From: a virus
Lineage: Duplodnaviria > Caudoviricetes
Virus record (IMG/VR): IMGVR_UViG_3300030329_004607
Span: 1-52,775 of that record
Direction: 5' to 3' (one strand)
DNA: 52,775 nucleotides
The stretch's first letter is position 1; the number at the start of each line of letters is the position of its first letter. Below, piece by piece: positions 8,961 to 32,843 of this stretch. The notes below the pieces were generated by a model, which did not search any database, was not told the DNA's origin, and worked only from the letters and a program-made list of their open reading frames with translations. Made by a program: the position numbers and the translations under genes.

Positions 8961-9232
8961 AAATAATAACTAAAGATACTGCTAGAAAATATATATATGA
9001 AAGTAGTGGGAAAATATTTGCTGCTGTATTTACAAAGAAAAATGGAGAGAAAAGAAAGATGGTATGCAGACAAGGTGTAGCTAAATATGTTACAGGAAAA
9101 GGACTAAAGTTTAAGCCAGAAGAAAGAAATCTCATTGGTGTATTTGATATGCATAAGAAAGCATACAGATTTATCAATGTAAAGACACTACAGTCTCTTA
9201 AAGTGAAAGGCAAAGAATACAAAGTTACTTGA
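8957..9232 (+). CDS. WYL-like / SH3 beta-barrel phage protein (DUF2693-like)
   Basis: F.KKNGE.R.M...VFD..K.AYR pattern. Confidence 0.65.
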   Translation: MKIITKDTARKYIYESSGKIFAAVFTKKNGEKRKMVCRQGVAKYVTGKGLKFKPEERNLIGVFDMHKKAYRFINVKTLQSLKVKGKEYKVT

Positions 9233-9257
9233 GACAATAGTGAGACAAAAGTGATAC
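9230..9257 (+). repeat. Tandem 11-bp direct repeats TGAGACAAWAG (operator candidate)
   Basis: TGAGACAATAG TGAGACAAAAG TGATAC upstream of the RHH gene. Confidence 0.5.
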
Positions 9258-9365
9258 TCTCTTCGATATAAAAAAATATTTAATATATTTATAAAAATAT
9301 TTAGGTGGTATCAAATAATGTAATGTAAATTTTAACATCATCAAAAATGAGATTATAGGAGACTT

Positions 9366-9518
9366 ATGAGAGAAAATAATAATGAAAGGGAATTTTCACA
9401 TTTCCAATTCAAAGTACCGCACAAACTATGGAATAAATTCAAAATAAAGTCCATTAAAGACAATAGCCCTACGTATAGAGAGAAACTTATCGAATTGATA
9501 GAAAACTACGTAGGATAA
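9366..9518 (+). CDS. 50-aa ribbon-helix-helix-like regulator
   Basis: Manual translation ...FSHFQFKVPHKLWNKFKIKS...YREKLIELIENYVG; SD AGGAG. Confidence 0.65.
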   Translation: MRENNNEREFSHFQFKVPHKLWNKFKIKSIKDNSPTYREKLIELIENYVG

Positions 9519-9521
9519 GCT

Positions 9522-10346: not shown

Positions 10347-10594
10347 GTAAACTAAATGATTTTATGTTGCAATTTGGCGCAGATAAATTCATGCATTTTG
10401 CAGGTGGTGCATGTGTAATGGCTATCACTAACAGTTGGATAATGCTTGGAATAGTGGCGATAGGTAAGGAAATTTACGATTACAAGGATTATGGGCTATT
10501 TAGTAAGGCTGACGTAATTGCTACTGTTTTAGGTGGGCTATTTGCCTATTTTGCAGCAATTTGTTGGAAACTATTACCATTCACATTAGTTTAA
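10343..10594 (+). CDS. YfiM/VanZ-like small membrane protein
   Basis: DK..HF, GKE..D, D...T..GG motifs with TM segments. Confidence 0.65.
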   Translation: MSKLNDFMLQFGADKFMHFAGGACVMAITNSWIMLGIVAIGKEIYDYKDYGLFSKADVIATVLGGLFAYFAAICWKLLPFTLV

Positions 10595-10603
10595 GGAGAT
10601 TTA

Positions 10604-10858
10604 ATGAGAGACTTACCATTAATGTATGGCAGTGGATCAAGGCTAATGATCATTAATATTTATAAAGAGCAGTTAAGTAAGTTTGAGAAAATAGGGTTAG
10701 GTAATTATACTGAGCATAATACTTTAATAACAGAAAAGTTAATTAAAACTACTGAAAAGCGTTTAGCTCAACTATCTACTGCCTATGAGGCATCTTTAAC
10801 GCCAGCTGCTGAACTTTGGAGAAGAAAAAGAGATGAAGGAGAGATGTATGACAGATAA
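10604..10858 (+). CDS. Hypothetical protein, paralog of 13529..13735
   Basis: 84-aa ORF, SD AAGGAG. Confidence 0.7.
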   Translation: MRDLPLMYGSGSRLMIINIYKEQLSKFEKIGLGNYTEHNTLITEKLIKTTEKRLAQLSTAYEASLTPAAELWRRKRDEGEMYDR

Positions 10859-11396
10859 AACAAACTACTTTGTAGAATTAGATAGAGTAGACGTAACAAA
10901 ACACATAGAAAAGAAAGGTAGATTTAGCTACCTTAGTTGGACATTTGCAGTTAGAGAATTAAAAACATTACATCCAACTGCTACTTGGACAATACATGAA
11001 TGGGAAGGTGTTCCGTTCATTAAGACTGAATGTGGCTATTTTGTAAAGGTTACTGTGGACGTAGATGGTATTGAAATGACTCAAGTACATCCAGTTTTAG
11101 ATAATGCAAATAAATCTGTTGAACAGCCAAATGCTTTTCAAATAAATACAAGCATTCAAAGATGCTTAACTAAGGCAATAGCACTACATGGTCTTGGTAT
11201 TCATATTTATGCAGGTGAAGATTTACCTCAAGTAACACCGCTTGATAATTTGCAAAAAAAAGAATTATTTAATGTTTTAGAAACTCGTAAGGCTGATAAA
11301 AAACTTACAGATAAAGTTATAGAACAAATAAATAATGGAACAATAAACCAGAGTAATTATCTTGATGCAATGAAACATTACTCTACAAATGGGTAA
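10848..11396 (+). CDS. sak: Sak-like single-strand annealing protein (DUF1071 type)
   Basis: EKKG..SYLSW..A, PVLD..N, INTSIQRCLTKAIALHGLG..IYAGEDLP. Confidence 0.88.
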   Translation: MTDKTNYFVELDRVDVTKHIEKKGRFSYLSWTFAVRELKTLHPTATWTIHEWEGVPFIKTECGYFVKVTVDVDGIEMTQVHPVLDNANKSVEQPNAFQINTSIQRCLTKAIALHGLGIHIYAGEDLPQVTPLDNLQKKELFNVLETRKADKKLTDKVIEQINNGTINQSNYLDAMKHYSTNG

Positions 11397-11406
11397 GGAG
11401 AAAAAT

Positions 11407-12036
11407 ATGTCAACAATGACTGAAACACTAAAAGATGAGGCTTTATTTATTCCAAGTGAAGCCAATAATTCAAATAATAAACCAGAATATATTCCTAAGA
11501 CATCAGGAGATTATTTAGGTCATATTGTAGATGCTAGAACAATAACAAGGGAATTTCAGAAAGATGGAAGAACCTTTAAAGCACGTATATTTAACTTTAA
11601 AATACATGTTGCACCTGAAAACAAAGGAATGACGTATACTATTACAAGTAGTGATGGTTCAAGCAAAGATGTTACTGGTGAACATTATGTTGATTGGACT
11701 ATAATAGCTGATGGTGTATTTAGATTTTTAGAGCCAGGACATGAAGATTCTTTTGAATCTAATGCAGAGGGAAATAAAAAATACTTAATGTTTTGTGAAT
11801 CTCTTGGCATGGAAATTAAAACTGAAGATAGAACTGTTAATGATCGTACTGTAAGAGTTCAGATTCTTCCAGATTTAAAAGAAGAAGATTTAAATGGTAC
11901 TCCTGTAATTGCTGTTGTTGGACGTGGTAAAGATTGGGTTAATGATGAGGGAAAAACAAGGAGATCATGGAGATGTAAGTTTACTAAAAGATGGGCAGAA
12001 GGAAAGAGGTTACAAACTGATGATCTTCCGTTCTAA
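11407..12036 (+). CDS. Single-stranded DNA-binding protein-like
   Basis: Follows Sak; OB-like pattern, C-terminal DDLPF tail. Confidence 0.7.
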   Translation: MSTMTETLKDEALFIPSEANNSNNKPEYIPKTSGDYLGHIVDARTITREFQKDGRTFKARIFNFKIHVAPENKGMTYTITSSDGSSKDVTGEHYVDWTIIADGVFRFLEPGHEDSFESNAEGNKKYLMFCESLGMEIKTEDRTVNDRTVRVQILPDLKEEDLNGTPVIAVVGRGKDWVNDEGKTRRSWRCKFTKRWAEGKRLQTDDLPF

Positions 12037-12154
12037 TTTAAAAAAGACCATTGCAAGATTTCTTGTTAGAGGTCTTAGACGTAGACCAAATTCTGTTGCA
12101 AAGTTTTTAAACATAAGTAGAGCAACAGTTTATAGGTACATTAAGAATTCGTAA
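12020..12154 (+). CDS. 44-aa helix-turn-helix protein
   Basis: VAKFLNISRATVYRYI, Hin/resolvase-type HTH. Confidence 0.7.
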   Translation: MIFRSNLKKTIARFLVRGLRRRPNSVAKFLNISRATVYRYIKNS

Positions 12155-12155
12155 T

Positions 12156-12423
12156 GCATGATGGTGATCATTTACGCTAATCTTGATTCATGCTAGAGAC
12201 GAATACTGGCTGAAAGTTGCAGTATAAAAACTTCAATATATTTGAGGACTTTTACAAGAGGCATCAGAAAGGGTGTCTTGGTAGAAAGTCTCCGAAGATT
12301 GAAACCTTAACAAGTATTAGTCCTCAATGAAATTTAACAATGAGATGAGCAGGTACGCTTCCTTTATATTGACCTTAATGAGCTATCCGCACAATACCTA
12401 CACAGCTACCTGCTCTATTCTCA
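12156..12423 (+). ncRNA. Structured intergenic RNA candidate (four stem-loops)
   Basis: GCATGA/TCATGC, ATACTG/CAGTAT, TTGAGGACT/AGTCCTCAA and GAGCAGGTA/TACCTGCTC stems. Confidence 0.45.
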
Positions 12424-12558
12424 ATGACTGAAGAATTTTTAGAAATAATAAGAAATCTTTTACGAGAAAATAATGAATTAAAAAAAAGATTGAGTGTAAT
12501 GGAAGAAATATTGCATTCATATTTGCCAATAATAGAAAAGGAGAAAAAAGATGGGTAG
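12424..12558 (+). CDS. 44-aa coiled-coil peptide
   Basis: Manual translation MTEEFLEIIRNLLRENNELKKRLSVMEE...; overlaps the next start. Confidence 0.5.
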   Translation: MTEEFLEIIRNLLRENNELKKRLSVMEEILHSYLPIIEKEKKDG

Positions 12559-12775
12559 AGCAATAGACATGGAAAACAGACAAGATGATTTTGATCGTAG
12601 ATTAAAACTTGTCGAAGGTGCATTAGAAGAACTTGTTCAGACAAAGATACATCATGTAGATTTACATGAGAGCACAAAAGAGGTTCTAAGTAAATCAACT
12701 GAAATAAAGCCAGACGAAACATTTGAAAAACCTAAAGCAAAGAAAAGAGCTAAAGCAAAAGCAGAGAGTGCCTAA
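12551..12775 (+). CDS. Hypothetical protein, basic C-terminus
   Basis: 74-aa ORF, SD AAGGAG. Confidence 0.7.
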   Translation: MGRAIDMENRQDDFDRRLKLVEGALEELVQTKIHHVDLHESTKEVLSKSTEIKPDETFEKPKAKKRAKAKAESA

Positions 12776-12816
12776 AAGTCCAGCACAAAAGATTAGAGAT
12801 TACTTTATAAAGAAAT

Positions 12817-13053
12817 ATGGCAGCACAAAGGATATATTTATTAGAAAAAAAACCTCTGGGAGTATACAGGTGTCAGAGGTGCGGAGAAAACACAAAGAAA
12901 AGTAAATTTATCTGGAAGAGTTGGTTCTCTAATCATGAAAGCATAATATGTAGAGAGTGTGCCTATAAGGAATCATTTGGCACAAAAAATATTAAACAAG
13001 CAAAGAAAGAACGAATACTTGAAACGAAAAGCATTAACCAAAAAAGAGATTGA
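12817..13053 (+). CDS. Zinc-finger protein
   Basis: CQRC...CREC. Confidence 0.6.
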   Translation: MAAQRIYLLEKKPLGVYRCQRCGENTKKSKFIWKSWFSNHESIICRECAYKESFGTKNIKQAKKERILETKSINQKRD

Positions 13054-13228
13054 ACAGGCAATTAACGGACTCAGTAATAATGATCAGTATATTCATAATA
13101 AATTACTACAGATAGATAGTCTTTTTGGCTTATATTTAGAGTACAGAAAAGAAACTGAAAAGTTTAATGAGTACGTCAATTCAAGGGCAAAAGAGTTTGA
13201 GCAAAAACAATCTGAAAATAAAAAGTGA
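13019..13228 (+). CDS. Hypothetical helical protein (TTG start probable)
   Basis: In-operon ORF. Confidence 0.6.
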   Translation: MKRKALTKKEIEQAINGLSNNDQYIHNKLLQIDSLFGLYLEYRKETEKFNEYVNSRAKEFEQKQSENKK

Positions 13229-13586
13229 ACTTGATGTTGTTTACATAGATTCTGGTGGAACTAAACACTTAGAATATAAGAAAGCTTTGTGTGCAGAGGC
13301 ACAAATAGAAGGTTGTAGACAGCGTAAATTAGAACAAAAAAAGAGGATTATGGATATAGTAGACTTAATATTGCGAGTCCTAAAAAGTGAAAATTGGGGA
13401 GTCTTTTATAAGAATCAGCCAATACAACCGCTAGAACTACAGGGTGGTGATTCACTTTACAAGGTGAACCAAGTTGACGAATCTCACGTAGAAGAAATGT
13501 TAAATGAGGCGTTAGCGAAAGGAGAATCTTGGCAGGAATCTTCGCAGACAGATTCGAGTCAGAGCAAGAACTCCATGACTGGTTAA
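13167..13586 (+). CDS. Hypothetical protein
   Basis: 139-aa ORF. Confidence 0.6.
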   Translation: MSTSIQGQKSLSKNNLKIKSELDVVYIDSGGTKHLEYKKALCAEAQIEGCRQRKLEQKKRIMDIVDLILRVLKSENWGVFYKNQPIQPLELQGGDSLYKVNQVDESHVEEMLNEALAKGESWQESSQTDSSQSKNSMTG

Positions 13587-13735
13587 TATCTTTTTATGAG
13601 GGGCAATTAAGAAAGCTCCTAAATGATATTGGTGGCACAACAGAATATGGTGTAAAAATTACACCACGTGTTATCAAGGTCACCATGGACAGGTATTCAC
13701 AGTTATTGGAGAAAGATAATGTTACTGATTGGTGA
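13529..13735 (+). CDS. Hypothetical protein, paralog of 10604..10858
   Basis: TTG start with SD AAGGAG; shared Y..QL.K...G..TE....IT...I..T..R..QL. Confidence 0.65.
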   Translation: MAGIFADRFESEQELHDWLISFYEGQLRKLLNDIGGTTEYGVKITPRVIKVTMDRYSQLLEKDNVTDW

Positions 13736-14627
13736 TTGTTTTAAAAAGATAGATGAAATAGAAGAAAGCTCTGTTCAAGCAATAGTAACCTCACCACCTT
13801 ATTGGGGTCTTCGTGACTATAAGAAGGATGGTCAGTTAGGTGAAGAACTTGTTCCAGAGGATTTTGTAAATAGGCTTACTGCATTTTTTAATAAGTGTAA
13901 ACGTGTTCTTAAAGATGATGGTACTTTGTGGGTGAATATTGGAGATACTTATTTTGGAGCTAAAGGTGGCCATTGGGAGGGTGGTAATTCCATCACTAAC
14001 AATGCTACTGGCGACAATTATAGAATGCACCGAAAAGCACCCCCTAAGCACAGTAGATTGAAGACAAAGGACTTAACTGGTGTACCTTGGATGTTAGCGT
14101 TTTCTCTTCAAAAAGATGGATGGTATTTACGTCAAGATATTATATGGCATAAACCAAATCCAATGCCAGAGGCAGTTAAAGATAGATGTGTTAAATCACA
14201 TGAGTATATTTTCTTACTGTCATTAAAACCAAAATATTACTTTGATTATGAGGCAATACAAGAACCAGCTGTTTACGCTGGTGATAATAGAGCATCAAGG
14301 AAAGATAACAGAAGAGATGAACCTTTAAATTCTCACATGGCAGCCACTTCGCAGCCAGTAAAAGAATTTAGAAATAAAAGAGATGTTTGGTCAATTAATA
14401 CTGCTCAATCTGGTGAAGCACATTTTGCTGTTTTTCCAGAAAAGATTCCTGAGCTTTGCATAAAAGCTGGAACAAGAGAAGGAGACTTAGTTTTAGACCC
14501 TTTTATGGGTAGTGGTACAACTGCAACTGTGGCAAAAAGGTTAAGTAGAAATTGGGTAGGCATAGAACTAAATGAAGAATATGCTAAATTTATTAACACT
14601 AAAACATCACAGGAGGAATTATTTTAA
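13719..14627 (+). CDS. DNA methyltransferase, N4-C/N6-A, beta class
   Basis: Catalytic TSPPY N-terminal, IIW.KPNP, HFA.FP, SAM-binding LDPFMGSGTT C-terminal. Confidence 0.92.
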   Translation: MLLIGDCFKKIDEIEESSVQAIVTSPPYWGLRDYKKDGQLGEELVPEDFVNRLTAFFNKCKRVLKDDGTLWVNIGDTYFGAKGGHWEGGNSITNNATGDNYRMHRKAPPKHSRLKTKDLTGVPWMLAFSLQKDGWYLRQDIIWHKPNPMPEAVKDRCVKSHEYIFLLSLKPKYYFDYEAIQEPAVYAGDNRASRKDNRRDEPLNSHMAATSQPVKEFRNKRDVWSINTAQSGEAHFAVFPEKIPELCIKAGTREGDLVLDPFMGSGTTATVAKRLSRNWVGIELNEEYAKFINTKTSQEELF

Positions 14628-14628
14628 T

Positions 14629-14799
14629 ATGAAAAAGAAATGTTTTAACTGTGAATATACTCTCTATATAAATCCTAATGGCTTATGTAATAAGTGTCAA
14701 AAAATATATGATAAAAAAATAATCAAAGCTCTTAATAAACGTAATCAAAGAAAGACTCCTTACCCTGTTGGATTTGAATATAAAAAGGAGAGAAAATGA
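14629..14799 (+). CDS. Small zinc-finger protein
   Basis: CFNC...CNKC; SD AGGAGG. Confidence 0.55.
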   Translation: MKKKCFNCEYTLYINPNGLCNKCQKIYDKKIIKALNKRNQRKTPYPVGFEYKKERK

Positions 14800-16142
14800 C
14801 AAATAAAGAATTACCAAATGATGTTTCAATAGAAATTGCTGTTGTTGGAGCGGTTATAAGTTATCCTCATAAATATAATGATGTATCAAAATATATAGTA
14901 TCTGATGATGTATGGTATGAGTCTAAATGTAAAAGGCTTTGGAATGTAGTTTCAGGAATGATAAAAAGAAGAGAGCATATTGACCTCATGACTGTAAGTT
15001 CAATGCTTGACGAAGGTGATTACATAAATGGTGTAGACAATGTATTCATTGTTGATTGCATGAATAATTGTGGTCTTGAAAGAACAATAGAGGTGTATGC
15101 TAAAAAGATATATGAAAAATATTTATTACGTCTTGTTGTAAACCATGCAAAAGATATTGAAAAAAATGCAATGGATAATAAAGTTGATGCCCTTGATACA
15201 TTAGTTTCAGCCCATACATCCATAGGAGAATTAATAAATTTAAGACCAGATAATGATTTTGATATTAATGATGCTCTTGGTGATGCAATAGAATCAATAC
15301 AAAATACGGATAAATTATTAATAAAAACTGGCTTTGAAAATGTAGATAAATTTGCAGGTGGACTTACAAGGGGAGAATTAACCATAATTGGTGGTCGTCC
15401 AGGTCATGGTAAATCTACGATGATGTTGAACATGCTTAGCAATGTTCTTTCTACAGATAAAAAAGTCATGTTATTTAATAGAGAGCTTACAAATGTAGAG
15501 GTACTTAAAAAATTAATTGCACTTGAGTCTGGTAAATTATCATATGGAATGATACGTAAAGGTATATATGAAATGGAGCATCTTCAAGAACTTGATAGAG
15601 TACGTGGGTTTATTGCAAAAAAATATAATCCAAATAAATTTAGAATGTATGATAAAATAAGAGACTTTCCAACATCTGCAACAGAAATAAAGAAATTTAA
15701 ACCAGATGTAATATTTGATGACTATATACAATTAATAACTCCAGCTGGAAAAGAAGAGCAAAGAAGGTTACAGCTTGAACGTATTGTTAATGATTATAAA
15801 TGGATTGCAAAAGAATATAATTGTTCAGTAATTTTAGCTTCACAGCTCAACAGGTCATTGGAAACTAGAGGAAATCCAAAACCTCAATTATCAGATTTAG
15901 CAGAAAGTGGAGCAATAGAACAAGTAGCAGAAAATGTATTCTTTGTTTATTATCCATATAAGGTTCAAGCTTCAAAACCAGAAGATAAAAATCACATAAT
16001 GCTTGTTGCTGCTAAAGTTAGATATGGAGAAACAGGGACAATAGACATGTCATATAATGGAGATAAATGCAAAATATATAATAATGATGATGAAATGTTT
16101 GAACAAATAAAAGTAAAGGAATCAGATGAAATCCCCTTTTAG
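14796..16142 (+). CDS. dnaB: DnaB-like replicative helicase
   Basis: Walker A GRPGHGKST, DDYIQL, SQLNR, P.LSDL.ESGAIEQ, K.RYGETG. Confidence 0.95.
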   Translation: MTNKELPNDVSIEIAVVGAVISYPHKYNDVSKYIVSDDVWYESKCKRLWNVVSGMIKRREHIDLMTVSSMLDEGDYINGVDNVFIVDCMNNCGLERTIEVYAKKIYEKYLLRLVVNHAKDIEKNAMDNKVDALDTLVSAHTSIGELINLRPDNDFDINDALGDAIESIQNTDKLLIKTGFENVDKFAGGLTRGELTIIGGRPGHGKSTMMLNMLSNVLSTDKKVMLFNRELTNVEVLKKLIALESGKLSYGMIRKGIYEMEHLQELDRVRGFIAKKYNPNKFRMYDKIRDFPTSATEIKKFKPDVIFDDYIQLITPAGKEEQRRLQLERIVNDYKWIAKEYNCSVILASQLNRSLETRGNPKPQLSDLAESGAIEQVAENVFFVYYPYKVQASKPEDKNHIMLVAAKVRYGETGTIDMSYNGDKCKIYNNDDEMFEQIKVKESDEIPF

Positions 16143-16659
16143 AAAAATAATAGGAATTGATCCAGGTAAAGGCGGTGGGATAGCATTAATATCAGCTATA
16201 AGCCACAATAAAGAAGAGGTAAAAATATTTCCATGTCCTAAAGATGTAGATGGAATGGCAGCATTAATAGATGTTTGTCTCAGCAACGTCTCATCATACA
16301 GAGTAAAAGTATTCTTAGAAAAAGTTTGGGCATTCCCTACAGATGGTAGAGCTGGATCATTCTCATTTGGCTGTAACTATGGGCAATGGCAAGGAATATT
16401 AGCATCACATGAGCTTGAGCCAGTATTAGTTACTCCAAAGGAATGGCAATCACATTTTGAAATAAAAAAAGGTTTACCAAAAAATGTTAGAAAAAAAATA
16501 TTAAAACAAATGGCAAAGGATAAATGTCCAGATATGAAAGGCATAACATTAAAGACAGCAGATGCTTTATTGATTGCAATCTATGGGCTAGAAGCCTTTT
16601 TAAGCTACAAACGTGAACTGCCTTGGGTCTACCCTAGGGAAAAGGAAAAAGCTCTGTAA
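16126..16659 (+). CDS. RuvC-like Holliday junction resolvase
   Basis: IIGIDPG, LE, FSFG.NYG, P..W, ADALLIA. Confidence 0.85.
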   Translation: MKSPFRKIIGIDPGKGGGIALISAISHNKEEVKIFPCPKDVDGMAALIDVCLSNVSSYRVKVFLEKVWAFPTDGRAGSFSFGCNYGQWQGILASHELEPVLVTPKEWQSHFEIKKGLPKNVRKKILKQMAKDKCPDMKGITLKTADALLIAIYGLEAFLSYKRELPWVYPREKEKAL

Positions 16660-17175
16660 ATGGCTGATACAGAAGAAAAGGAGACAATACTTGAAATGTT
16701 AGATAGAAAATTAGGCGGTATAGAGGTAATTGATGATGAAATGGCAAGTCAAAACTTTAAAGACTCACTTGCCATAGGTCATACAGTAGAAGATAAGGTA
16801 TGTGCAAAGATAAGAAAGAAATATCGTAAAGCATATGTCAAACAAGGTTACTGTAAAGGATATGATATATATGTTCCTGAGAATGGAATGAAAGTAGAGG
16901 TTAAGCAAGATAAAAAATCAAATTTTACAGGGAACATTGTTGTTGAGATTGAGTTTAATGGCAAGCCTTCAGCTCTATCTACTACAGAAGCACATTACTG
17001 GGTATTTGATGATGGAGAGAAATACATGTGGATAACACCAAAGATATTGAGACAAATCATTGAACCATTGAGACCTGTTAAGTTTGTAGGTAATGGAGAT
17101 AACAAATCTAAGTTAGCTTATCTTGTTAAAAAGGATATTATTATTTCTAATTGTTTAAAGGTAGATAAGTATTAA
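16660..17175 (+). CDS. PD-(D/E)XK-type endonuclease
   Basis: G...E, YD....VEVK.D....TGN..VE. Confidence 0.7.
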   Translation: MADTEEKETILEMLDRKLGGIEVIDDEMASQNFKDSLAIGHTVEDKVCAKIRKKYRKAYVKQGYCKGYDIYVPENGMKVEVKQDKKSNFTGNIVVEIEFNGKPSALSTTEAHYWVFDDGEKYMWITPKILRQIIEPLRPVKFVGNGDNKSKLAYLVKKDIIISNCLKVDKY

Positions 17176-20100
17176 ACATTATTTGGATAAGCAAAATATT
17201 TATTACGCCACTTAGATTTACGTATTATTTTTTGTAAGTCTCTATTTTTATATTCATATAATTTTGCTACTTTTCTTACCATCTTTTCATTCTCAGGTGA
17301 AAGCCAATCATAAAATTGATTCATTAAATTTTTAGATGTACCTTTTCTTTCATCAGAAATGTTAAGTGGTTTATAATGGGACATTACACTTTTTATAGCT
17401 TGTTGTGCTTTTTTATATCTTTTTCTTGGAGTTGAATATGGGTCAACTCTTCCTTCATCTGTTATTACAAAACTCATTGCATCCCAATATGCCTTTGCAA
17501 CATCTTCTTCTTTTCCAAACATTATTGCCTCTTTTAAATCTGTATAATAGGGCTGTCTTCTACTTATAGTTCCATCTCCAGAAAACATTGGCAGATTACG
17601 TTGCTTTTTAAATGTTCTAACCATTGCTCTAGTTGCCATGAAATCCTTAAAGTAAGGGCTATTTTTATATAAAGTTGTTCTAAATAAAGTCATAGCTTGA
17701 TTTGCAACTACAACAGTTTGTTTAGTCCAACTTTTAATAGCCTGCCCTAATGTTTGTCCTCCACCTCTTACTTTGGCAATTTGTTTGTTAGCTTCTAAAA
17801 TATTTCTAATTATTACAGGCTCTATTATTGGAACTCCAAGTTCTCTTTCATATGGATTGAGTCCAGGTATGACTTCTCCAGCTAAACCAAAAAACTCTGA
17901 TCTCCATAAATTTAACATTGCTTTTGAAAATCCATCATCTTGTGTTAATGCAGAACCTGTTGGAGGTTCTTTGCCAAAAGCCTCTTTAAATACAAAATAT
18001 AAAGCTGCACCACTAGCAGAATGTGCAAGTGTAGCTCTAAGCAGTGGAGCAAAATTGCCAAATTCTTGTATTGGTTTTATGAAATTTCTATGAATGTCAA
18101 TAGTAGTAGCTGTTGCCATTCTTTGGAATAATGTTAAAGGTTTAGCCTCAGCTGAAGACATCCATAGTGGAAGTAAAACAGTTGAAGTTCCACCTTGAGT
18201 AGTTACATGTGAAAAGTGTCCAACTTTATTTATTATAGATGAATACTTGCCTTTTACATCTACTGAAGATAAATCTTTTGTATTTTCAAGAAAACTAATT
18301 TCATCACCACTCAAATGCCAGACCTCTTCCATCAATCTTCTCATTCTACTTTTATTTGTCTTCATTTTAAACATGCCTTTTTCGCCACGTAGTTTAGAAA
18401 CAACTTGATCAAAATATAATTGTCCAGCATGAGAAGAAATTATTCTATTCATGTTTTCAGTTTGTGTCATAAAGTTAAATTTAAAAAGATTTCTCATGTT
18501 TAATTTTTTACCAAGTACATCAAAACCTATCTCATCAAGTTCTAAATTTTTAGCACCATATTCAAGATAACCTTTATTTCTTGCCTCATGCCAAGCAGAT
18601 GCATCAAACATATGCTTTATTCCACTCATTGTTCTCCAAAAGCCATGAACACCTATTGATCTTGGTATACCAATGGCAAGGTTTTTCATTCCAGATAAAG
18701 GAGAAGATAAACCCATAGCAGCAGATGAACTTGCAATTATACCCCCAGCCTTATAAAGAGGTGATGCTAATGACTTTTTCAAATCTCTTTCAAAACCTAA
18801 TTGTCTTTCAACTGCTAAGTTTGCATAAGTAGCTATACCTCCACCTTCCCTTCCATCTTCAGCTAATTTAACTATTTCTGAAAGAGTTCCTGTATGTATT
18901 TTATGTTTGCTTCCAGTTCCAGTCCATTCAGGAAAATAGCTAACATTTGCTAAATGCTTTGACATTCTTCTAACGTACATTCCAGCAGTACCCTCAATAG
19001 TATCATCATATACTTTAATTTTTTCTTGTATTCCTCTGTCATTTGTAATATCAACATATTCTTTCATCAATCCTTTACGTGGAATTAAGTGAGGATTTTT
19101 AACATGGCCATATCCATATTTGAGAGCTTTAAACATTTCTTCTCTGATTTCACTTCTAAGTTTTTCTCCTTCAATAGAATTAGGGTCTTTATATTTATCT
19201 TCAAGAACTTTAGCCTCAGTATCAGATTTAGCTTTTTCTTTTGCTTGTTTTTTGGCGAGTTGGTTTGCTTGTTTTTCAACCATTTCATTTATGTAATTAC
19301 TATCTTTATGAAGATATTTTAAAGCTTTCTTTGTCCAAGCTCTTGTCATGTAATTATCAACTTCAATGGATTTCATTTCTGCCATTATTGTTTTAGCACT
19401 CTCAGGAGTTTCATGTTTTAATAATGCTTTTTCAAGTTCTTTCCAAATTTCAGTTTTATATCTATCCCATACTTGATAAGCTCTATATTCATCAGACTTT
19501 ATATCTTTGTTTTTACCATGCACTTTTTCATAAAAGTCTTGTTGACTTTTTGATAGTTCACCTTCTTGGTATAGTCTATCAGCTCTTTCTTTATCAAATA
19601 TTAATACAGCATTTTTAGATTTCTTTTTACCTAAAGTTGTTTTTATAAGATTAATTGCCTGATCTCCTGGCCCTTTATATAGAACATGTTCAGCCCATTC
19701 ATGATTCAAAAGTCTATTAGAGATTCTCTTTCCAGCTTCACCACCATAATTTTTAAGAACTAACCATACAGGCATAACAGCACGACCATAACGATACATC
19801 CATGGTTGTTTTTTAGAAATATCTTGCTCTCTCAACATCAAGTGATCTGTTAAATTTGTATCTTTAACTGGAGGTGCTTCATATTCACTACGCACCATGG
19901 ATTCATATGCTTTCATTGTTTCAGGAGATGCATTTTCATACTTTCCACCTTCAACCCCCATTAATTCTAAAGAAGCTTTTGCAACTTCTGGATGGACATG
20001 GTACTTATCGTTTACATCTTGTATTCTTCTAAAAATAGGCTCAGCAGATTTACTATTACCATAATTAGCTGGATGGTCTACTAAATATTCTTGGTATCTT

Positions 20101-23100
20101 TGCATTTGATCTAAAGTTATATTATCTGCTTTAAAGGTTGTATCTCCAAAAATTTCAGTTCTAACTTTATTATATCCTTTTAAATCAGCTTTTTTAACTC
20201 TTCTATCAAGACTATCCATTCCACCCTCATGCACTTCTCTATTTAGTTTTTTTATTTCAGCTTTTGCTTGAGGACTTTGTTTCGCTGTTTGATATTTAGT
20301 TATGAATTCTTTTGCTCTTTGCTCTGGAAGATCACCTTTCATTACTCTTTCACCAAGAATACGAGCAACATCATTTTTATTATGAACATTTAATTTATGT
20401 TTTAAGTGACTCCAAAACTTGTTAAGGAAATTTTTAACCTTTCCTATCATTGTTTTATTTTTCATGTTACCAGCAACATATTCACCGATAGCTTGAACCA
20501 TGTTTTCTTCACCTCTAAACATACGTTCACCATCTTTGATAAGTTTTTTACTTTTCTTATCTCCAAAGGCACGAAGAACATCAACAACATGGTGAGACAC
20601 CTCATGCGGAATAGTATCAGCTCTAGCATCTCCTTTAGCTATATCAATAAGATGACCAGTAACACGACCAAGAACAGCTTCTCCTTGAAACTTTCCTAGA
20701 GTATCCTTTAATTGTATATCAAGTTCTGGATAAAGTTTTTTAAAATGGTTTATTTGTGATTTTAATTGATCAACACTTATTCCTAAACTTTTAGATGCAC
20801 TTTCAAGTTGATATTTTGTTTCTTTAGTCCCAAATAGTTCTGATAATTTATTGCTTCCATCAAGAACTGATATATTTTCAGTTAAAATATCTTGTATAAT
20901 TCCACTAAGTTCTACCTTAGTTGCTTCTGGCATAGTTCCTTTATAATACTTGTTTACAACTTCAGAACTACCCTTATGCCCAAGATAAAAAGATAATAAA
21001 TCTTTTTGCCTTTGTGTCATTCCAACTTGATCAGCTCTAGTTTCTATAAACTTTCTTACATCTTCAACACGAATATTAGCTTTATATAAATCTTTTATTA
21101 ATTCTGGAGTATTTTTACTTTTAAATATAGGATCATTTTTACCAACTTTATTTTCTTTTATAATTGTTTGTATTTTATCATATAAATTTTTTGAAATTTT
21201 AACAGGTCTTGGATTGCCACCACCCTTTTTAACAAGACCTGGAGTAACATGATAATAATATTCCATCTTACCTTTTATTTTTTTCTTTTTAATATTTGAT
21301 GGAGTAAGGGCGTTAAACTCACCAGTACGAACACCAAGACCTTCTACACCATGTAGGGATGCAGAAACATGAAGTTCTTTTTGTTTTGTTGTTGATTTAT
21401 TGAATGTTGGTAGCTTTTTTACACTTTTAGCTATATCTGCTTCAAGATTAATTTCTCCTATAGCTTCTATTCTCTCACCTGCGATACGTTCACGAATCTG
21501 TTTTGCAAGTTGCCAAACACCTTTATTAGATAAATCTTGTTTTCTAAATGGTTGCTCTATAAGTTTTTTATAACCTGCCCAATCAACAAATTCAGAAAAT
21601 GCAGTTGCCATTGGCTCTGGTCTTAAAGGAAGATTTGGATCACGACTATCAATTCCTTGTAAAATTTTCTTTATATCATTTGGTTTAATTCTTTCAATAG
21701 AATCTTTACCAAGGAATTTTAATCCTTTAGCAATTAATCTCACAGAACCTTTATTACCCTCTCCTGCTTCAACCCAAGCAAGTAAAGAATTTTTTGTAAC
21801 ATTATCTTTTATTTCTGGAATATGTGTTTTTTGTTCTGGAGGTTTCTCAAAGTCAATTAAAGTTTTTTCAAGTTCACTTGTATCACGATATGAAAAATCT
21901 TTATCTTTTCTTTTTATTTTAAGATTTTCTTGTACTTGCTTCATCTCAGCAGAAGTAGTTGCAATATCTCTATATCTTGTTGTAGCACCTTCACGACCAG
22001 TAGCTATTGCTTCTGTTTCAGCGAGTTCACCTTTTTCTTGCTTTATTAATTCTGTAGCTTGTTTTCTACCTTCTGGCGTATCAATATCAAGCTCTGACAC
22101 ATCTATACCAAGAGATTCACTTTCTTCAAGTATTTTCTTTTCAGTATATATGACTTTACCTTGACGATCTCTTACTTTGTCACCTTTCCATGTATCAGAT
22201 AATTTTAATAATTGTTCTTTATGTTTTTTAAAAGAACCTAAAAGACCTTCATACATTGGATTTATAGGATCAGTAGCATGCTCTATAAGCTTTTCAACAG
22301 CTCCAATTTGCTCACTAACATTGGTTATCAATCTATTTGCTCTCTCAGTAGAACCTTCAGTAATACCATCAACATAATCACTTATAAGTATTTTTGTTTT
22401 TTCTTGAGATGATTGTAAATCTTCTTTAAATTTTATATATTTTTCATCTACACCTCTTTTTTCCTTATGAAGAGTGTCTGCAATTTTTTCATCATTTATA
22501 GCTTCCTCAATATCTCCTTGCTCTCTCTTTTCTCTTGCTCTTTCCCTTATCTCTAATTCCTGTTTATCGAGAATACTTGCATGTCTTGGATTTCCTTCAC
22601 TATCTACACCATGTTTAGCTTTTTCAGCTTCTTCTAAAAGTTTATAATGCTCCATACTTTTAGAGAATACTTTATGCATTCCTTTTGTTATTCCAAATAA
22701 ACCAAGATCAGCAACTAATGATACACCTATATCTCTCCATCTAACGTCTTCTCCTTTTGCAACTGCTGTTACTACATCTCCTGCAGTATATACAGCTGAT
22801 TCTGCTCCTATTTGACCTACAGGGCTAGTAAGTCCAAGCAATGTCCTTTCCCCTTTTGATATTGCTTCTGTTGCTTCTTCTCCTGCTTTAGTAGCAATTT
22901 TACCTGCTTTGGAAAATTTATCTAAAAGATGTGCATTTGAATAGGCTAAACCTCCACCAGCAGCACCAGCAAGTCCACCAAGTATACCTCCATGCATAAC
23001 GCCCTTAGCAATACCGCCCATTACATCTTCACCATTTACACCTGCTTGCACTCCACCCATAGCACCTTCATATGAGGCAAGTGTAAAAGCTTGTCTTGTA

Positions 23101-23612
23101 GCAAGTTCGCCCATTGAATTTTTAAGAGTTTGTTTAACCTGAAGTTTAGAAGCCTCTTTAGCTGTTTGAACGCCAAGTCCTTTTAATACTAAACTTCCTG
23201 CTCCTGCACCTGCACCTAAAGCTATAAGGTCAAGTGGCATTATAAATGAAGCAAGCATTGAACCAATGTCTTCAAGAATATTAGGATCATAATCATCAAG
23301 ATTATATCTTTGCTTTCCTGTTACTAATTGTTCTGTTAAACCTGTAAGGGAATTATTATAACCAGCTTTCCAAAAATCAGCAGAATTTTCATCTATCCCA
23401 TAATCAAACCATGATTGAAATCCATTCATGAATGTAGGAGATGTATTAGCATCTTTTTTAACTTGTGCTTTATTATCTACCTCATTCCAAGAAAGATTTG
23501 GATTATCTCTTTTTAAATATTTGTAAATTCTTTCATCGCTAAGTCCATCTACTGCATAGTCTGAATTACGATATTCATCAATAGCACTTTTTACATTTAA
23601 TGGTATTGCCAT
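17172..23612 (-). CDS. Giant internal virion (ejection) polyvalent protein with tyrosine-recombinase and zincin metallopeptidase domains
   Basis: Last gene of the structural operon; Gly/Ala-rich hydrophobic N-region; R762..R853..LGH879..Y889; HEVSH at 1003-1007. Confidence 0.75.
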   Translation of the reverse strand: MAIPLNVKSAIDEYRNSDYAVDGLSDERIYKYLKRDNPNLSWNEVDNKAQVKKDANTSPTFMNGFQSWFDYGIDENSADFWKAGYNNSLTGLTEQLVTGKQRYNLDDYDPNILEDIGSMLASFIMPLDLIALGAGAGAGSLVLKGLGVQTAKEASKLQVKQTLKNSMGELATRQAFTLASYEGAMGGVQAGVNGEDVMGGIAKGVMHGGILGGLAGAAGGGLAYSNAHLLDKFSKAGKIATKAGEEATEAISKGERTLLGLTSPVGQIGAESAVYTAGDVVTAVAKGEDVRWRDIGVSLVADLGLFGITKGMHKVFSKSMEHYKLLEEAEKAKHGVDSEGNPRHASILDKQELEIRERAREKREQGDIEEAINDEKIADTLHKEKRGVDEKYIKFKEDLQSSQEKTKILISDYVDGITEGSTERANRLITNVSEQIGAVEKLIEHATDPINPMYEGLLGSFKKHKEQLLKLSDTWKGDKVRDRQGKVIYTEKKILEESESLGIDVSELDIDTPEGRKQATELIKQEKGELAETEAIATGREGATTRYRDIATTSAEMKQVQENLKIKRKDKDFSYRDTSELEKTLIDFEKPPEQKTHIPEIKDNVTKNSLLAWVEAGEGNKGSVRLIAKGLKFLGKDSIERIKPNDIKKILQGIDSRDPNLPLRPEPMATAFSEFVDWAGYKKLIEQPFRKQDLSNKGVWQLAKQIRERIAGERIEAIGEINLEADIAKSVKKLPTFNKSTTKQKELHVSASLHGVEGLGVRTGEFNALTPSNIKKKKIKGKMEYYYHVTPGLVKKGGGNPRPVKISKNLYDKIQTIIKENKVGKNDPIFKSKNTPELIKDLYKANIRVEDVRKFIETRADQVGMTQRQKDLLSFYLGHKGSSEVVNKYYKGTMPEATKVELSGIIQDILTENISVLDGSNKLSELFGTKETKYQLESASKSLGISVDQLKSQINHFKKLYPELDIQLKDTLGKFQGEAVLGRVTGHLIDIAKGDARADTIPHEVSHHVVDVLRAFGDKKSKKLIKDGERMFRGEENMVQAIGEYVAGNMKNKTMIGKVKNFLNKFWSHLKHKLNVHNKNDVARILGERVMKGDLPEQRAKEFITKYQTAKQSPQAKAEIKKLNREVHEGGMDSLDRRVKKADLKGYNKVRTEIFGDTTFKADNITLDQMQRYQEYLVDHPANYGNSKSAEPIFRRIQDVNDKYHVHPEVAKASLELMGVEGGKYENASPETMKAYESMVRSEYEAPPVKDTNLTDHLMLREQDISKKQPWMYRYGRAVMPVWLVLKNYGGEAGKRISNRLLNHEWAEHVLYKGPGDQAINLIKTTLGKKKSKNAVLIFDKERADRLYQEGELSKSQQDFYEKVHGKNKDIKSDEYRAYQVWDRYKTEIWKELEKALLKHETPESAKTIMAEMKSIEVDNYMTRAWTKKALKYLHKDSNYINEMVEKQANQLAKKQAKEKAKSDTEAKVLEDKYKDPNSIEGEKLRSEIREEMFKALKYGYGHVKNPHLIPRKGLMKEYVDITNDRGIQEKIKVYDDTIEGTAGMYVRRMSKHLANVSYFPEWTGTGSKHKIHTGTLSEIVKLAEDGREGGGIATYANLAVERQLGFERDLKKSLASPLYKAGGIIASSSAAMGLSSPLSGMKNLAIGIPRSIGVHGFWRTMSGIKHMFDASAWHEARNKGYLEYGAKNLELDEIGFDVLGKKLNMRNLFKFNFMTQTENMNRIISSHAGQLYFDQVVSKLRGEKGMFKMKTNKSRMRRLMEEVWHLSGDEISFLENTKDLSSVDVKGKYSSIINKVGHFSHVTTQGGTSTVLLPLWMSSAEAKPLTLFQRMATATTIDIHRNFIKPIQEFGNFAPLLRATLAHSASGAALYFVFKEAFGKEPPTGSALTQDDGFSKAMLNLWRSEFFGLAGEVIPGLNPYERELGVPIIEPVIIRNILEANKQIAKVRGGGQTLGQAIKSWTKQTVVVANQAMTLFRTTLYKNSPYFKDFMATRAMVRTFKKQRNLPMFSGDGTISRRQPYYTDLKEAIMFGKEEDVAKAYWDAMSFVITDEGRVDPYSTPRKRYKKAQQAIKSVMSHYKPLNISDERKGTSKNLMNQFYDWLSPENEKMVRKVAKLYEYKNRDLQKIIRKSKWRNKYFAYPNNV

Positions 23613-27322: not shown

Positions 27323-27913
27323 TTATTTAAAAAATACTGTTACTATAAGTTGTGCATATCTATCATCGCCATCTGTATCTACAGCGATTCCAGAAGCTCC
27401 ACCTGAAGAATAAGCTAAACCAGCTCCTTCAGTATGAAGATTAAATTCTCTAAGTGAAATAAGATTAAGGGTTGGATTATAATCTATTCTTCCTTCTGGG
27501 GCTGGGTCAGAAGTAGGAAGTCCATACTCTGCAAGTGTCACCATTGAACCAACATTTAACCATTGTATACTCCAATTTGCACATAAAAAATTCTTTTGAT
27601 TTATAAAATCTGGAAGATATATCTTTTTTTGAACAGTACTATCTCCAGTACTTCCTTCAGAAGCTGGGACATCTATGCTAGCTTGCCATATCTTTGGAAT
27701 ATAAACATCTGGATTGTCAAGTTCATTTCCATGCAATATGTTACTAAGCCATCTTCCACCAACCTTTGCAAATAATCTTGCACCAAGAGATGTATTCCTA
27801 ACTTCAAGATCGCCTTCACTACCTTCACGTGGATTAGGACTACTCATTTTACTTGTAATCCTAGACCTTCTAGCTGTGCCCCAAAGTGATGATCTTAATT
27901 TATTCCTTGCCAT
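27323..27913 (-). CDS. Putative tail-associated protein
   Basis: 196 aa directly after the tail nozzle; P...EG..GD motif. Confidence 0.55.
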   Translation of the reverse strand: MARNKLRSSLWGTARRSRITSKMSSPNPREGSEGDLEVRNTSLGARLFAKVGGRWLSNILHGNELDNPDVYIPKIWQASIDVPASEGSTGDSTVQKKIYLPDFINQKNFLCANWSIQWLNVGSMVTLAEYGLPTSDPAPEGRIDYNPTLNLISLREFNLHTEGAGLAYSSGGASGIAVDTDGDDRYAQLIVTVFFK

Positions 27914-30582
27914 TATTTAACTGGTCTTTCTCTATATAAAATTGCTATATCATTTATTTCAAAAGCCTCATCTACAGTTCCAGTTATCTTAATCGCAAAA
28001 GAATTACAGCCAGTACCACTTGAACCTGGGATAAGTGTAGCAACTGCTTTAGTTTGTCCTGTTGAAAAACTTCCAGTAAAACTTTCACTTGGGGTAGCAC
28101 CATTAACACCATATGTTACATCTGGAACATTACTAGAACCAGACGTATATGTAACATATACTTTCATTATTTTTTTAGTTTGAGATGGTGTTCCAAAATC
28201 AATGTCTTTTGTTATATATGTAATTGATTGAGTATTACTATCAGCATTACCTACACTATAAGCTTTTAAAGTTTCTTCAGCATCTTGACATATACATAAA
28301 TGACCATTTGGAGCTATTTGAAAATTTGTATGTCTATCTGTATCAGAATTAGTAATTATATTGACACCTTCAGTCCAAGATTGTGTAACCATGTTATATA
28401 CCCATCCATCATCATTATCAGATTCATCTCCAATATTTTTAAGAACAATAATACTTTGTGAGCGTGGATCATAACCAACACATGGAACATTTGCATTATC
28501 ATCTGCAATTGAATCTGATTCACTTAATCCCCAATCACTTATGTCAAATTTACCGCTAGTAAGTGATATTACTTTTTGACCATCATATATATAACATCCA
28601 TATTTATTTGCAAATATTACCCCAAATCCACAAGTAAATACTTGGCATGGGTTAGCTACTCCACAATCTTTAAATATTGCTTCTGCATGAAAAAATCCAG
28701 GATTTGAAATATTAATTATATACATTGCATTTTCTTTAAATTGTAATATAGTATCTTGAAAGGCTGCTAAGGCTGTAATTGGTGAGCCATCCCCAGATGG
28801 AGAATCAAAAAAGTTAAGCTCAGGAATTACTCCTGGCTTTCCTGGCATTGAAAACATCATACCATCAGCAAAATGTTTACCCCTAAATTCTACATTGCCT
28901 ACAAATACTAATCCATTTTGAGCAACTACAGATGTTTTATATCTAAGATCATGAGGCACTGGACCAGCAGTTCCAGTTGCTATTTCATCTGCAACTTCTG
29001 TATATACTTCATTTGCATAATATAAATTTTGAGAATTATATGATTGTACGCTTGGCGGTGCTGAAAAATTTATATCAGTTGCTAAAGTGTGTTTATCTGT
29101 GCCTATGGTAAATTTAGTAAAAGTTGACTCAAGAGCTCCTCTTACACCTTCTTTTAAATTAATTTCTGCTAATAACCATTTTTCTGTTGTTCCAGATTCT
29201 TTAAAATATATACGAGCACCTTCAATCCTTTTATTTCCACCAAGATGAGCATCATTTTTATGTTGAAAATTTACATTAAAATCTAAAGAATGACCTTGAA
29301 ATGAAATTCCATCAGATTCATCGCCATCGCTTTCCGTTCCACATGAAGTTAATCCTGTTTCACAACCATTGTCAAAAAGCCATGAAACATAGAAATAATA
29401 AGTAGTATTAACAGTATCTACCCCCCAAGAACCAGCAGGATTAGATTGTGGAGTACACTCTATAATCATAGTACCTGCAACAGTTGATTGCTCTAAAGCA
29501 CTTTTAACTTTAACATCCCCAACAGCCATTGATCCAGCTGCTTGACTATCATATATTGGAGCATCTATTAACCTATTTCCATACACCCAACCTGTAACAG
29601 TTTCCCTTTGATCTTCTCTATATACAAGCCTTGCACATTTGCTTGTTGTTGTATGTGCAAAATTAGCATCATTCACATATAAACCATTACCAAAAGCATG
29701 AAAAACAGGAGCAACATTTACTGCATCGTTTGAAATTGTAAGAGCAGAACTTCCATCATCAATAGTTGTGGCACTAGAAGCATCATCTTTAAATACAACA
29801 TGTTCTCCATCTGTTGAGCAAACAATTGTACAATTTTCTTGAACAGGAGCAGATGCTAATGAATATGCACTATTAAATATAAATAACCCATACCCAGAAC
29901 ACGGAATATGAGTTGCAGCTGATGCAAGAGTAGCTGTAGAGAGTCCACTAGCATCTGATTTAATATCTCCTAAAACTTTTATAACTCCTATATGTGAAAA
30001 TGTTACATTTTTTGCTTCTTGACATTCATTAATTCCTAGGTCACGTGGTGAAGATTTTTGATTTATACCTCCATGAAACTGAGATAATTGAAATAACTTT
30101 TTACTTCTACCTTTTAATATTGGTAATGGTTGAAAGCCTCCAGATATAGAATTCCAAACAATAGAACCACTAAGAGGACTAACTCCCATATTTGAGAATA
30201 ATGAAGTACCACTAGAAATAGGACTATTAGCCATATCCATTGATCTTCCTTGAGCCCCACCTTCTTCAGTATCTCCTTCAGGATCACCTCCACCAAACAT
30301 GCCTCCAACGCCAGTGTGAGGGGTAAAAGTAAACTCTCCACCTGCTTCAGAGATTGGAAAAGGTACTGTTGTAGGAGGATCATCTGGCGCAGCAGCTCCA
30401 GAAATTATAGCAGAAGAAGAAGCCTCAAGATTAGGAGGAGTATATGGAGTATATCCAAAACCTATTTGTGGAAGATTTAGATTAAGTTGCCCTAAAAAGT
30501 TACTAGAACTTAATGGATTACCTTCTTCATCTACAAGCCCAGGCTGTGTTGTTGGATTATTATTATTTCCAGTTCCAGCCAC
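27913..30582 (-). CDS. Tail nozzle/stabilisation (tubular B-like) protein
   Basis: F.GG.N...PRD motif, beta-propeller-like repeats, C-terminal TKDIDFG.P...K...KVYVTY. Confidence 0.7.
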   Translation of the reverse strand: MAGTGNNNNPTTQPGLVDEEGNPLSSSNFLGQLNLNLPQIGFGYTPYTPPNLEASSSAIISGAAAPDDPPTTVPFPISEAGGEFTFTPHTGVGGMFGGGDPEGDTEEGGAQGRSMDMANSPISSGTSLFSNMGVSPLSGSIVWNSISGGFQPLPILKGRSKKLFQLSQFHGGINQKSSPRDLGINECQEAKNVTFSHIGVIKVLGDIKSDASGLSTATLASAATHIPCSGYGLFIFNSAYSLASAPVQENCTIVCSTDGEHVVFKDDASSATTIDDGSSALTISNDAVNVAPVFHAFGNGLYVNDANFAHTTTSKCARLVYREDQRETVTGWVYGNRLIDAPIYDSQAAGSMAVGDVKVKSALEQSTVAGTMIIECTPQSNPAGSWGVDTVNTTYYFYVSWLFDNGCETGLTSCGTESDGDESDGISFQGHSLDFNVNFQHKNDAHLGGNKRIEGARIYFKESGTTEKWLLAEINLKEGVRGALESTFTKFTIGTDKHTLATDINFSAPPSVQSYNSQNLYYANEVYTEVADEIATGTAGPVPHDLRYKTSVVAQNGLVFVGNVEFRGKHFADGMMFSMPGKPGVIPELNFFDSPSGDGSPITALAAFQDTILQFKENAMYIINISNPGFFHAEAIFKDCGVANPCQVFTCGFGVIFANKYGCYIYDGQKVISLTSGKFDISDWGLSESDSIADDNANVPCVGYDPRSQSIIVLKNIGDESDNDDGWVYNMVTQSWTEGVNIITNSDTDRHTNFQIAPNGHLCICQDAEETLKAYSVGNADSNTQSITYITKDIDFGTPSQTKKIMKVYVTYTSGSSNVPDVTYGVNGATPSESFTGSFSTGQTKAVATLIPGSSGTGCNSFAIKITGTVDEAFEINDIAILYRERPVK

Positions 30583-32069: not shown

Positions 32070-32843
32070 TTATTTTCCTATTATTAATTCTCCCCAAAGG
32101 GATGTTTTTCCATTTATTATTTGTATTACATGTACAGTAAAGAATCCTTTATCATAAAAGTCTACTATTGCGAAAGCATGAGACCAATTATGCATTCTAT
32201 GTTGCAAGAATTCATTCTTTCTTGGAGACATGTCTTTAAGACATCCTATACTCCACGCTGACTTCGCCCCATCCAGATGTGTTACAGACGACTGCTGTAT
32301 GTCGTGATGATGACCATACATAACATTTGTTCCTAGCCTCATCAAATGATTCCTTGTATGATTTATTCCAGCAAAATGGTGTCCATGATACATCGCTAGT
32401 TTCCCAATCTTCATGTATTTCCCCACTGGATGATACGTATAACCTCTTTCTTTTAAATTTACACATTGTTCAAACCTATATTGTTCCATGTATGGATGCT
32501 CTTCGACAAACCTATTCATCCAATCATCGTGATTGCCTTCTATCATATGCTTCTCTTTACAGTTTGCCTTATCAAGAGACTCATCTATTATATCCATTCC
32601 TTTATTGACATCTTTAATATCCTTGTCAATGAATGGAGTTTGGTACTCTAATGGAGGACGTTTCTTTTTTCTCCACTGCCAGTGACTTGCACCTTCCCAC
32701 TCTCCAACATCCCCTAAATCTACATATATATCTGGTTTTACTATTTCTATACATTGACATAAACAGTCAATTGCTTTTTTATCAGCCAAAGGAAAATGTT
32801 TATCTGGTGTTACTATTGCTCTTTTAACTATACTTTTAGCCAT
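32070..32843 (-). CDS. Calcineurin-like metallophosphoesterase
   Basis: D.H (PDKH), LGD, GNHD, HG and GH.H motifs. Confidence 0.88.
   Translation of the reverse strand: MAKSIVKRAIVTPDKHFPLADKKAIDCLCQCIEIVKPDIYVDLGDVGEWEGASHWQWRKKKRPPLEYQTPFIDKDIKDVNKGMDIIDESLDKANCKEKHMIEGNHDDWMNRFVEEHPYMEQYRFEQCVNLKERGYTYHPVGKYMKIGKLAMYHGHHFAGINHTRNHLMRLGTNVMYGHHHDIQQSSVTHLDGAKSAWSIGCLKDMSPRKNEFLQHRMHNWSHAFAIVDFYDKGFFTVHVIQIINGKTSLWGELIIGK

Follow-up and report, generated by a model that had tools for sequence, protein, structure and literature searches.

The giant protein and its recombinase module

The window analysed is the complete IMG/VR virus record IMGVR_UViG_3300030329_004607 (52,775 bases; IMG/VR class direct terminal repeats; CheckV completeness 100) of an uncultured marine phage. 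Its genes are arranged in two arms, one per strand. The late/structural arm on the minus strand closes with its final and largest gene, an open reading frame (ORF) at positions 17172–23612 that is open over 2146 residues and stands downstream of the genes for portal, major head protein and tail fibre. Residues ~600–900 of the encoded giant protein were confirmed as a two-domain tyrosine-recombinase (TR) module, real but unusual. The module lies in a cassette of residues ~476–932 (20817–22185, minus strand), whose borders were set by blastn against locus L020. This locus carries a different cassette (type B), and the alignment ends at 22186 and restarts at 20816. The cassette present in the window is referred to as type A.

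Homologues of the giant protein were obtained by a search of 5.8 billion proteins, which returned 24 sequences of 1245–2896 aa, all from marine metagenomes. A tblastn search of the protein against 50,697 phage records gave no match. Five homologues (P0002–P0006) carry a type-A middle part with 49–77% identity. P0028 (1876 aa) is 31% identical over the type-A stretch and retains GLRTSE, the hairpin Lys, TRK, MGH and KIY. Further type-A loci were found in viral contigs (three) and in metagenome contigs (two). A cassette scan of 1.84 billion representatives yielded only five proteins, and no free-standing relative was found among them.

Within the cassette, a core-binding-like helical domain (residues ~603–705; 21498–21806, minus strand), in which the core-binding-like stretch IERIKPND begins at residue 639, is followed by the catalytic domain (residues ~717–900; 20913–21464, minus strand). 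The former was assigned by hhalign and VIA-align to the N-terminal domain of Cre (model residues from 29 on Cre residues from 20), the latter by PHROG integrase matches and hhalign to Cre. The original prediction, made from the sequence, had read recombinase motifs in this region and claimed an Int-like fold. GVRTGE, VKKGGG, DPIF (827–830), VEDVRK, YLGH and NKYYKG are indeed located at the residues it gave, and the fold was borne out in both domains by PHROG, hhalign and AlphaFold model matches. Its interpretation as a whole was partly supported.

For profile searches, segment 590–915 was compared with PHROGs and matched phrog_1 (integrase, E 4.9e-6) and phrog_216 (integrase, E 9.4e-5). The matches span residues 759–860, and with the whole protein as query E was only 0.0021. 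For profile-profile comparison, hhalign was run with seven type-A sequences against 15 aligned real tyrosine recombinases as the reference, namely P1 Cre, lambda Int and those of 13 E. coli K-12 loci with PF00589. The match extended over 283 columns and both domains (Prob 90.6%, E 1.3e-6, score 53.5), with control scores of at most 17.9 for 20 column shuffles and 16.1 for the reversed alignment. No signal was obtained when A1 was compared with Cre or lambda Int as single-sequence profiles. Sequence searches of the PDB with the giant protein, the segment and alignments A1 and A3 gave nothing beyond prefoldin, IL-10, ribosomal L11 and designed helical proteins, all with E of 0.02 or above.

For structural comparison, an AlphaFold 2 (AF2) model of the type-A module was used, with a mean predicted local distance difference test (pLDDT) score of 78 and values of 84–97 in the N-terminal domain. 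Foldseek against the PDB placed Cre/Tre on top (E 1.7e-4). VIA-align to Cre gave Z 9.2 over 233–245 residues, with model residues 29–309 on Cre residues 20–319. The best 50 PDB matches were all recombinases, type IB topoisomerases or the TR-fold repressor SroF; the catalytic domains of topoisomerase IB aligned to model residues 130–318 (VIA-align). At BFVD ranks 1–48, each named match was an integrase, XerC, DNA_BRE_C or VLF-1.

Exchange of the module among homologues

That the recombinase module is an exchangeable cassette had been overlooked in the original prediction. The exchange is seen in homologue P0007, whose identity to the giant protein is 89% over residues 1–555, 21% over residues 575–925, 94% over the following zincin part and 98% over residues 1101–2146. 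Most homologues bear the type-B cassette, not type A. From a BLAST row, P0007 had also been considered as a mosaic of types A and B; this was rejected as an artefact of a long gapped alignment.

The type-B cassette is, by model and profile comparison, also of TR fold. Its AF2 model has a pLDDT of 78, and a Foldseek-independent structure search of 48,161 chains ranked XerD first (Z 8.1), with recombinases or integrase N-domains in all of the best eight rows. With Foldseek, the same model gave weak matches, none of which reached E 0.001 (topoisomerase IB, E 0.079). Using hhalign, the 11-sequence type-B profile matched the 15 reference recombinases at E 9.2e-7 (10 shuffles scored at most 13.7), and the type-A and type-B profiles matched each other at E 3e-5. 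A shallower alignment of seven type-B sequences gave no match to type A and a Prob of 1.3% against real recombinases. The type-B relative P0013 matched PF00589 at E 9.3e-5 with 22.7 bits, under the cut-off of 27.1, and PHROGs searches with four type-B or distant homologues found no integrase match. A third type (P0015, P0022) matches type A at E 9.3e-5. As type A, type B and the third type are all TR-like, a TR-like module at this place is a constant of the giant-protein family. No other part of these proteins diverges as much or is exchanged as often.

Several observations were made around the cassette. The type-B cassette ends, after the Tyr, in an invariant P-R-x-N-E (R371, N373 and E374 of alignment A2; ~936–945 in P0007) that resembles recombinase box I (R-x-x-E) out of order. 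In the 2896-aa homologue P0025, which has only the zincin part in common with the giant protein, the variable middle contains a Rho_N domain match at residues 1057–1088 (PF07498, E 4.4e-5, 23.8 bits, cut-off 24.9). Contigs from other marine runs with at least 88% identity to the flanks turn unlike near the cassette borders, which fits natural cassette variants. Loose contig ends lie at 20618 (X4) and 20644 (X5), and the fit of X4 record 14 starts at 22023. Four runs were compared; in X3, X4 and X5 the cassette has thinner contig cover than its flanks. No contig bridges the cassette, and the run comparison was counted as no evidence.

Active site and genomic context

Active-site positions were assigned by hhalign mapping to Cre, in which R762 pairs with R173, E850 with H289, R853 with R292, H879 with W315 and Y889 with Y324, while K796 falls on the consensus Lys. 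Box I (21318–21329, minus strand) holds R762 (Arg I) and E765 (Glu I) in GVRTGE (760–765), and E765 occupies the family's Glu/Asp I position three residues past R762. K796 (21225–21227, minus strand; VKKGGG, 794–799) is the candidate catalytic Lys and lies in a beta-hairpin with an additional GGGN loop relative to the Cre/XerD/lambda Int type. Box II (21054–21065, minus strand; VEDVRK, 849–854) comprises E850 at the His II position, D851 and R853 (Arg II). The last part of the site, from H879 (His III) to Y889/Y890 with the predicted nucleophile, is encoded at 20943–20978 on the minus strand (YLGH, 876–879; NKYYKG, 887–892).

Of the 352 columns in the seven-sequence alignment, which reaches down to 26% identity, 37 do not vary; R762, E765, R853, H879 and Y890 belong to these. 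Five of the six canonical catalytic positions are thereby found among the invariant columns (P 5.5e-5, post hoc test). K796 is invariant in all six close type-A sequences, and P0028 has a loop gap there. Column 850 holds E in five of the seven sequences, Q in P0004 and S in one. Because Y890 is invariant and Y889 is not (F in P0006, I in P0028), Y890 is the likelier nucleophile as judged from the alignment, one residue off the hhalign pairing. The type-A module keeps six of the seven canonical active-site positions (R762, E765, K796, R853, H879, Y890). The R/K/R/H/Y signature on which the original prediction had relied is therefore conserved in relatives, together with the Glu three residues past Arg I. 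Like R853, D851 and K854 are shared by all six close type-A sequences. To have two acidic residues (E850, D851) adjoining Arg II is unusual for a TR active site.

In the 11 type-B sequences, K174 is present in at least 90%, and R243 (Arg II) and Y282 (Tyr) are invariant. In place of Arg I there is Pro or some other residue; an invariant Arg (R240) stands at His II, and Asp, His or Asn at His III. The pairing of Arg I and Glu in type A with no Arg I and an Arg at His II in type B suggests, at the level of the alignments, a shifted arginine. Types A and B both deviate at positions important in Cre, yet Tyr, Arg II and Lys are kept across deep divergence. Cleavage chemistry is probably retained in both types, and classical four-strand recombination is unlikely.

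The His II position was compared with the passages on it in Gibb et al. 2010 (PMC2943603). There it is given as 87% His, 7% Tyr and ~1% Gln in the TR family, as the least conserved of the seven canonical residues and as a residue with no equivalent in topoisomerase IB. Replacement of Cre H289 by Gln or Leu leads to accumulation of the covalent intermediate. H289E is one of no more than five replacements listed as abolishing recombination by Cre in vivo, so a full Cre-type reaction by the type-A module is doubtful.

The zincin-type motif HExxH...E (H1003, E1004, H1007, E1036; 20505–20606, minus strand) follows directly after the cassette and is defined at motif level. Its four residues show no variation in the 16 family members aligned, and the zincin part has no Pfam or PDB sequence match. 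In the N-terminal part of the giant protein, a hydrophobic Gly/Ala-rich segment (residues 112–148; 23169–23279, minus strand) was recorded as a possible membrane or channel segment. Its Kyte-Doolittle mean is 1.75 (19-residue window), and it is the sole segment above 1.2 in the protein. Language-model leads pointed to LPD39 clusters (0.98) and LPD38 clusters (0.97), also to LPD22 and P22 gp16, with no hmmscan support.

In the minus-strand late/structural arm, the portal (49941–51980), the major head protein (47753–49129), a tail fibre of 1279 aa and a weak internal-virion-protein match (27913–30582, E 6.5e-4) were assigned. A metallophosphoesterase (32070–32843, minus strand; phrog_221, E 1.4e-22) lies inside the structural block between the putative tail and internal-protein genes. 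The plus-strand arm (~4000–17175) contains genes for a homing endonuclease, a Cas4-like nuclease, a DNA methyltransferase and a DnaB-like helicase. The first two belong to the early arm, namely a GIY-YIG/HNH-type homing endonuclease at 7890–8960 (plus strand; phrog_314, E 1.4e-19) and the Cas4-like nuclease at 9522–10346 (plus strand; phrog_1706, E 3.2e-17).

The record begins and ends with a 113-bp repeat (1–113 and 52663–52775), which sits inside a junction-crossing ORF (1–918 and 52018–52773, minus strand; no match in a PDB sequence search). The repeat thus arose as an overlap in the assembly of a sequence that is circular or permuted, and it says nothing on physical ends; the link drawn in the original prediction between the module and a special leading end is not supported. 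A link to a lox-like site had also been proposed. This site lies in non-coding DNA at 3148–3181, and its 7+7 inverted repeat at 3153–3176 is single-copy, is one of 48 short inverted repeats genome-wide and was picked as a candidate after the fact; nothing ties it to the module. No other PF00589 match was found in six frames of the complete genome. For the integration option, two pattern-limited scans were made that covered 185,579 prokaryote species with one genome apiece; 29 and 9 stretches fitted the pattern, and none was confirmed as related to the giant protein or to the type-B cassette. As no prophage copy was found in these scans, integration and lysogeny are without support.

Interpretation and comparison with known systems

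Size, Gly-rich hydrophobic segment, HExxH...E motif and gene position of the giant protein together have the build of polyvalent or ejection proteins. MPTase is described as the hub domain of phage polyvalent proteins in the main text of Iyer et al. 2017 (PMC5512222). From gene position, protein size, residues 112–148, the zincin motif and the language-model leads, the giant protein may be packed in the capsid and ejected with the DNA.

The best explanation, to which we would give about an even chance, is a TR-fold cassette in a delivered giant protein. The giant protein would be packed in the capsid and would enter the cell along with the DNA, and the zincin may release the recombinase module by cutting. 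The module would bind a specific DNA sequence and cut one strand through Y890, which would yield a 3'-phosphotyrosyl link. Given the replaced His II, the expectation is nicking-closing or else a covalent attachment that lasts, in place of four-strand exchange of the Cre type. Cassette types A, B and C would be specificity alleles of one job.

A number of results weigh against this explanation. Pfam PF00589 (cut-off 27.1 bits) gave no match on the giant protein, the segment or six genome frames, and NCBIfam gave none on the giant protein. Residues 261–320 of the type-A model, which hold E850, R853, H879 and Y890, have a pLDDT of only 50–68. No notable inverted repeat that might serve as a DNA target was found inside or bordering the cassette. 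Delivery is affected as well: the virion placement is a prediction from gene order, hmmscan of the giant protein matched no Pfam LPD or MPTase model, and the phage has no cultured relative, its portal being only 22–24% identical to P22-like and APSE portals. At the active site, the passages of PMC2943603 on substitutions report H289R, like H289E, as inactive in Cre in vivo, and recombinases without Arg I are described there as possibly having other active-site layouts or being inactive. Because most type-B sequences are without Arg I, the function common to all cassette types may be DNA binding only.

A catalytically dead DNA clamp, with the TR fold kept for binding as in the SPbeta-type repressors MrpR, YopR and SroF, is a tentative possibility. 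Inside the capsid or during entry, such a clamp could hold or mark the phage DNA; it could also be an early DNA-binding regulator. The inactivity of Cre with Glu at His II (PMC2943603), the missing Arg I and the Asp at His III in many type-B members, and Pfam matches that all stay under the cut-off fit this account. The three repressors, which have no recombinase activity, are also among the fold matches. To our knowledge, however, the TR-fold repressors have lost their catalytic residues, whereas R762, E765, R853, H879 and Y890 are invariant here down to 26% identity, and both types A and B retain Tyr, Arg II and Lys. A large intracellular late protein that never enters the virion and acts in DNA processing or in concatemer resolution during packaging is distinctly improbable. 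It would agree with a virion location taken from gene order and with VLF-1 proteins at BFVD ranks 29–30, VLF-1 being a recombinase-family protein in genome packaging as stated in a passage of a 2024 paper (PMC11654684). Against it, the size, the Gly-rich segment, the HExxH...E hub motif and the post-tail position fit injected polyvalent proteins.

The model favoured in the original prediction was a Cre-like cyclisation recombinase, ejected with the DNA and circularising the genome at 3148–3181 before gene expression. Cre is the best structural match, the 7+7 repeat at 3153–3176 is real and non-coding, and no other integrase was found in the genome (PF00589, six frames). Cyclisation would, however, require two sites, of which the assembled genome has one copy; the 113-bp repeat gives no evidence of physical ends, the inverted repeat is one of at least 48, His II is Glu, and a cassette swap would demand a swap of a site 18 kb away. 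We regard this model as very unlikely. A ready-made integrase, injected by a temperate phage in a retrovirus-like manner, could explain why no free-standing integrase was found in the complete genome (PF00589), and cassette diversity could mirror differing attachment sites. It is hardly to be expected, as no relative was confirmed in the pattern-limited scans of one genome each of 185,579 prokaryote species; no repressor or excisionase turned up either, with no systematic search for them.

A bolder form of the preferred explanation, that of a delivered module which cuts through Y890, is rather unlikely. It would make the protein an injected TR of marine podovirus-like phages that acts before expression at a specific genome site to cap, pilot or circularise the DNA. 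The enzyme would covalently attach to this site on the incoming genome, or would nick and reseal it. Types A, B and C would be specificity or escape alleles, and in type B the Arg at His II would replace the absent Arg I in a rearranged site.

Phage proteins that enter together with the DNA are at work before expression of the first phage gene. RNA polymerases, ADP-ribosyltransferases, anti-restriction proteins and end-protecting proteins are the known cases. If the preferred explanation is true, an integrase-family DNA-cutting/joining enzyme delivered at entry would be a new class of entry function, and could be a source of new site-specific DNA tools whose specificity modules are swappable by nature. 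The pairing of types A and B, with Arg I and Glu in one and no Arg I and Arg at His II in the other, is a natural experiment on the recombinase active site. Even if inactive, a conserved TR-fold clamp in a presumed ejection protein would inform on the holding or transfer of DNA at infection.

Compared with Cre, XerD and lambda Int (PF00589 plus SAM-like core-binding domain), the module has the same two-domain clamp fold, with both domains profile-matched, and has Arg I, Glu I, Lys, Arg II, His III and Tyr in canonical order and spacing. In contrast to these free enzymes of 300–400 aa, it lies in the middle of a 2146-aa protein, has Glu/Gln at His II and falls under the Pfam cut-off. Recombinase folds outside classical integration are known from the repressors MrpR, YopR and SroF of SPbeta-like phages (PDB 8a0a, 8bj6, 9rd5), which are among the fold matches of both cassette types. 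These repressors are free-standing, whereas the type-A module retains catalytic residues.

Type IB topoisomerases share the catalytic chemistry predicted for the module, and the poxvirus enzyme is packed in the virion core; the catalytic-domain fold match is at Z 7–8.8. Type IB topoisomerases have a beta-rich N-terminal domain and an SKxxY motif. The module has a helical integrase-type N-domain, so that only the catalytic domain aligns, lacks SKxxY and has the recombinase-specific Glu I (E765). Telomere resolvases (TelK, TelN, ResT) have a recombinase-like core with resolvase-specific extra domains and serve genomes with hairpin telomeres. VLF-1 of baculoviruses and nudiviruses, among the structural matches, is also a TR-family protein linked to virus particle and genome handling. 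It differs in being a free-standing protein of eukaryotic viruses that acts in packaging or capsid assembly, not in entry. Outside baculo-like viruses, tyrosine recombinases have not been implicated in virion formation according to the passage of PMC11654684 on this subject.

The closest likeness in overall build is to the polyvalent proteins as described in the main text of Iyer et al. 2017 (PMC5512222). Both are giant, multi-domain proteins with a variable, exchangeable enzymatic middle, here next to a constant HExxH...E zincin-type motif, and for both delivery with the DNA is predicted; an example is the N4 virion RNA polymerase gp50 with an MPTase domain. The giant protein differs in having no Pfam LPD or MPTase match. 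The words 'recombinase' and 'integrase' have no occurrence in that main text, and text searches of the literature for TR or integrase modules in phage ejection, virion or polyvalent proteins found no precedent among the papers listed. What is new here is a TR module that forms a swappable cassette inside a giant phage protein and is TR-like in all lineages of the family.

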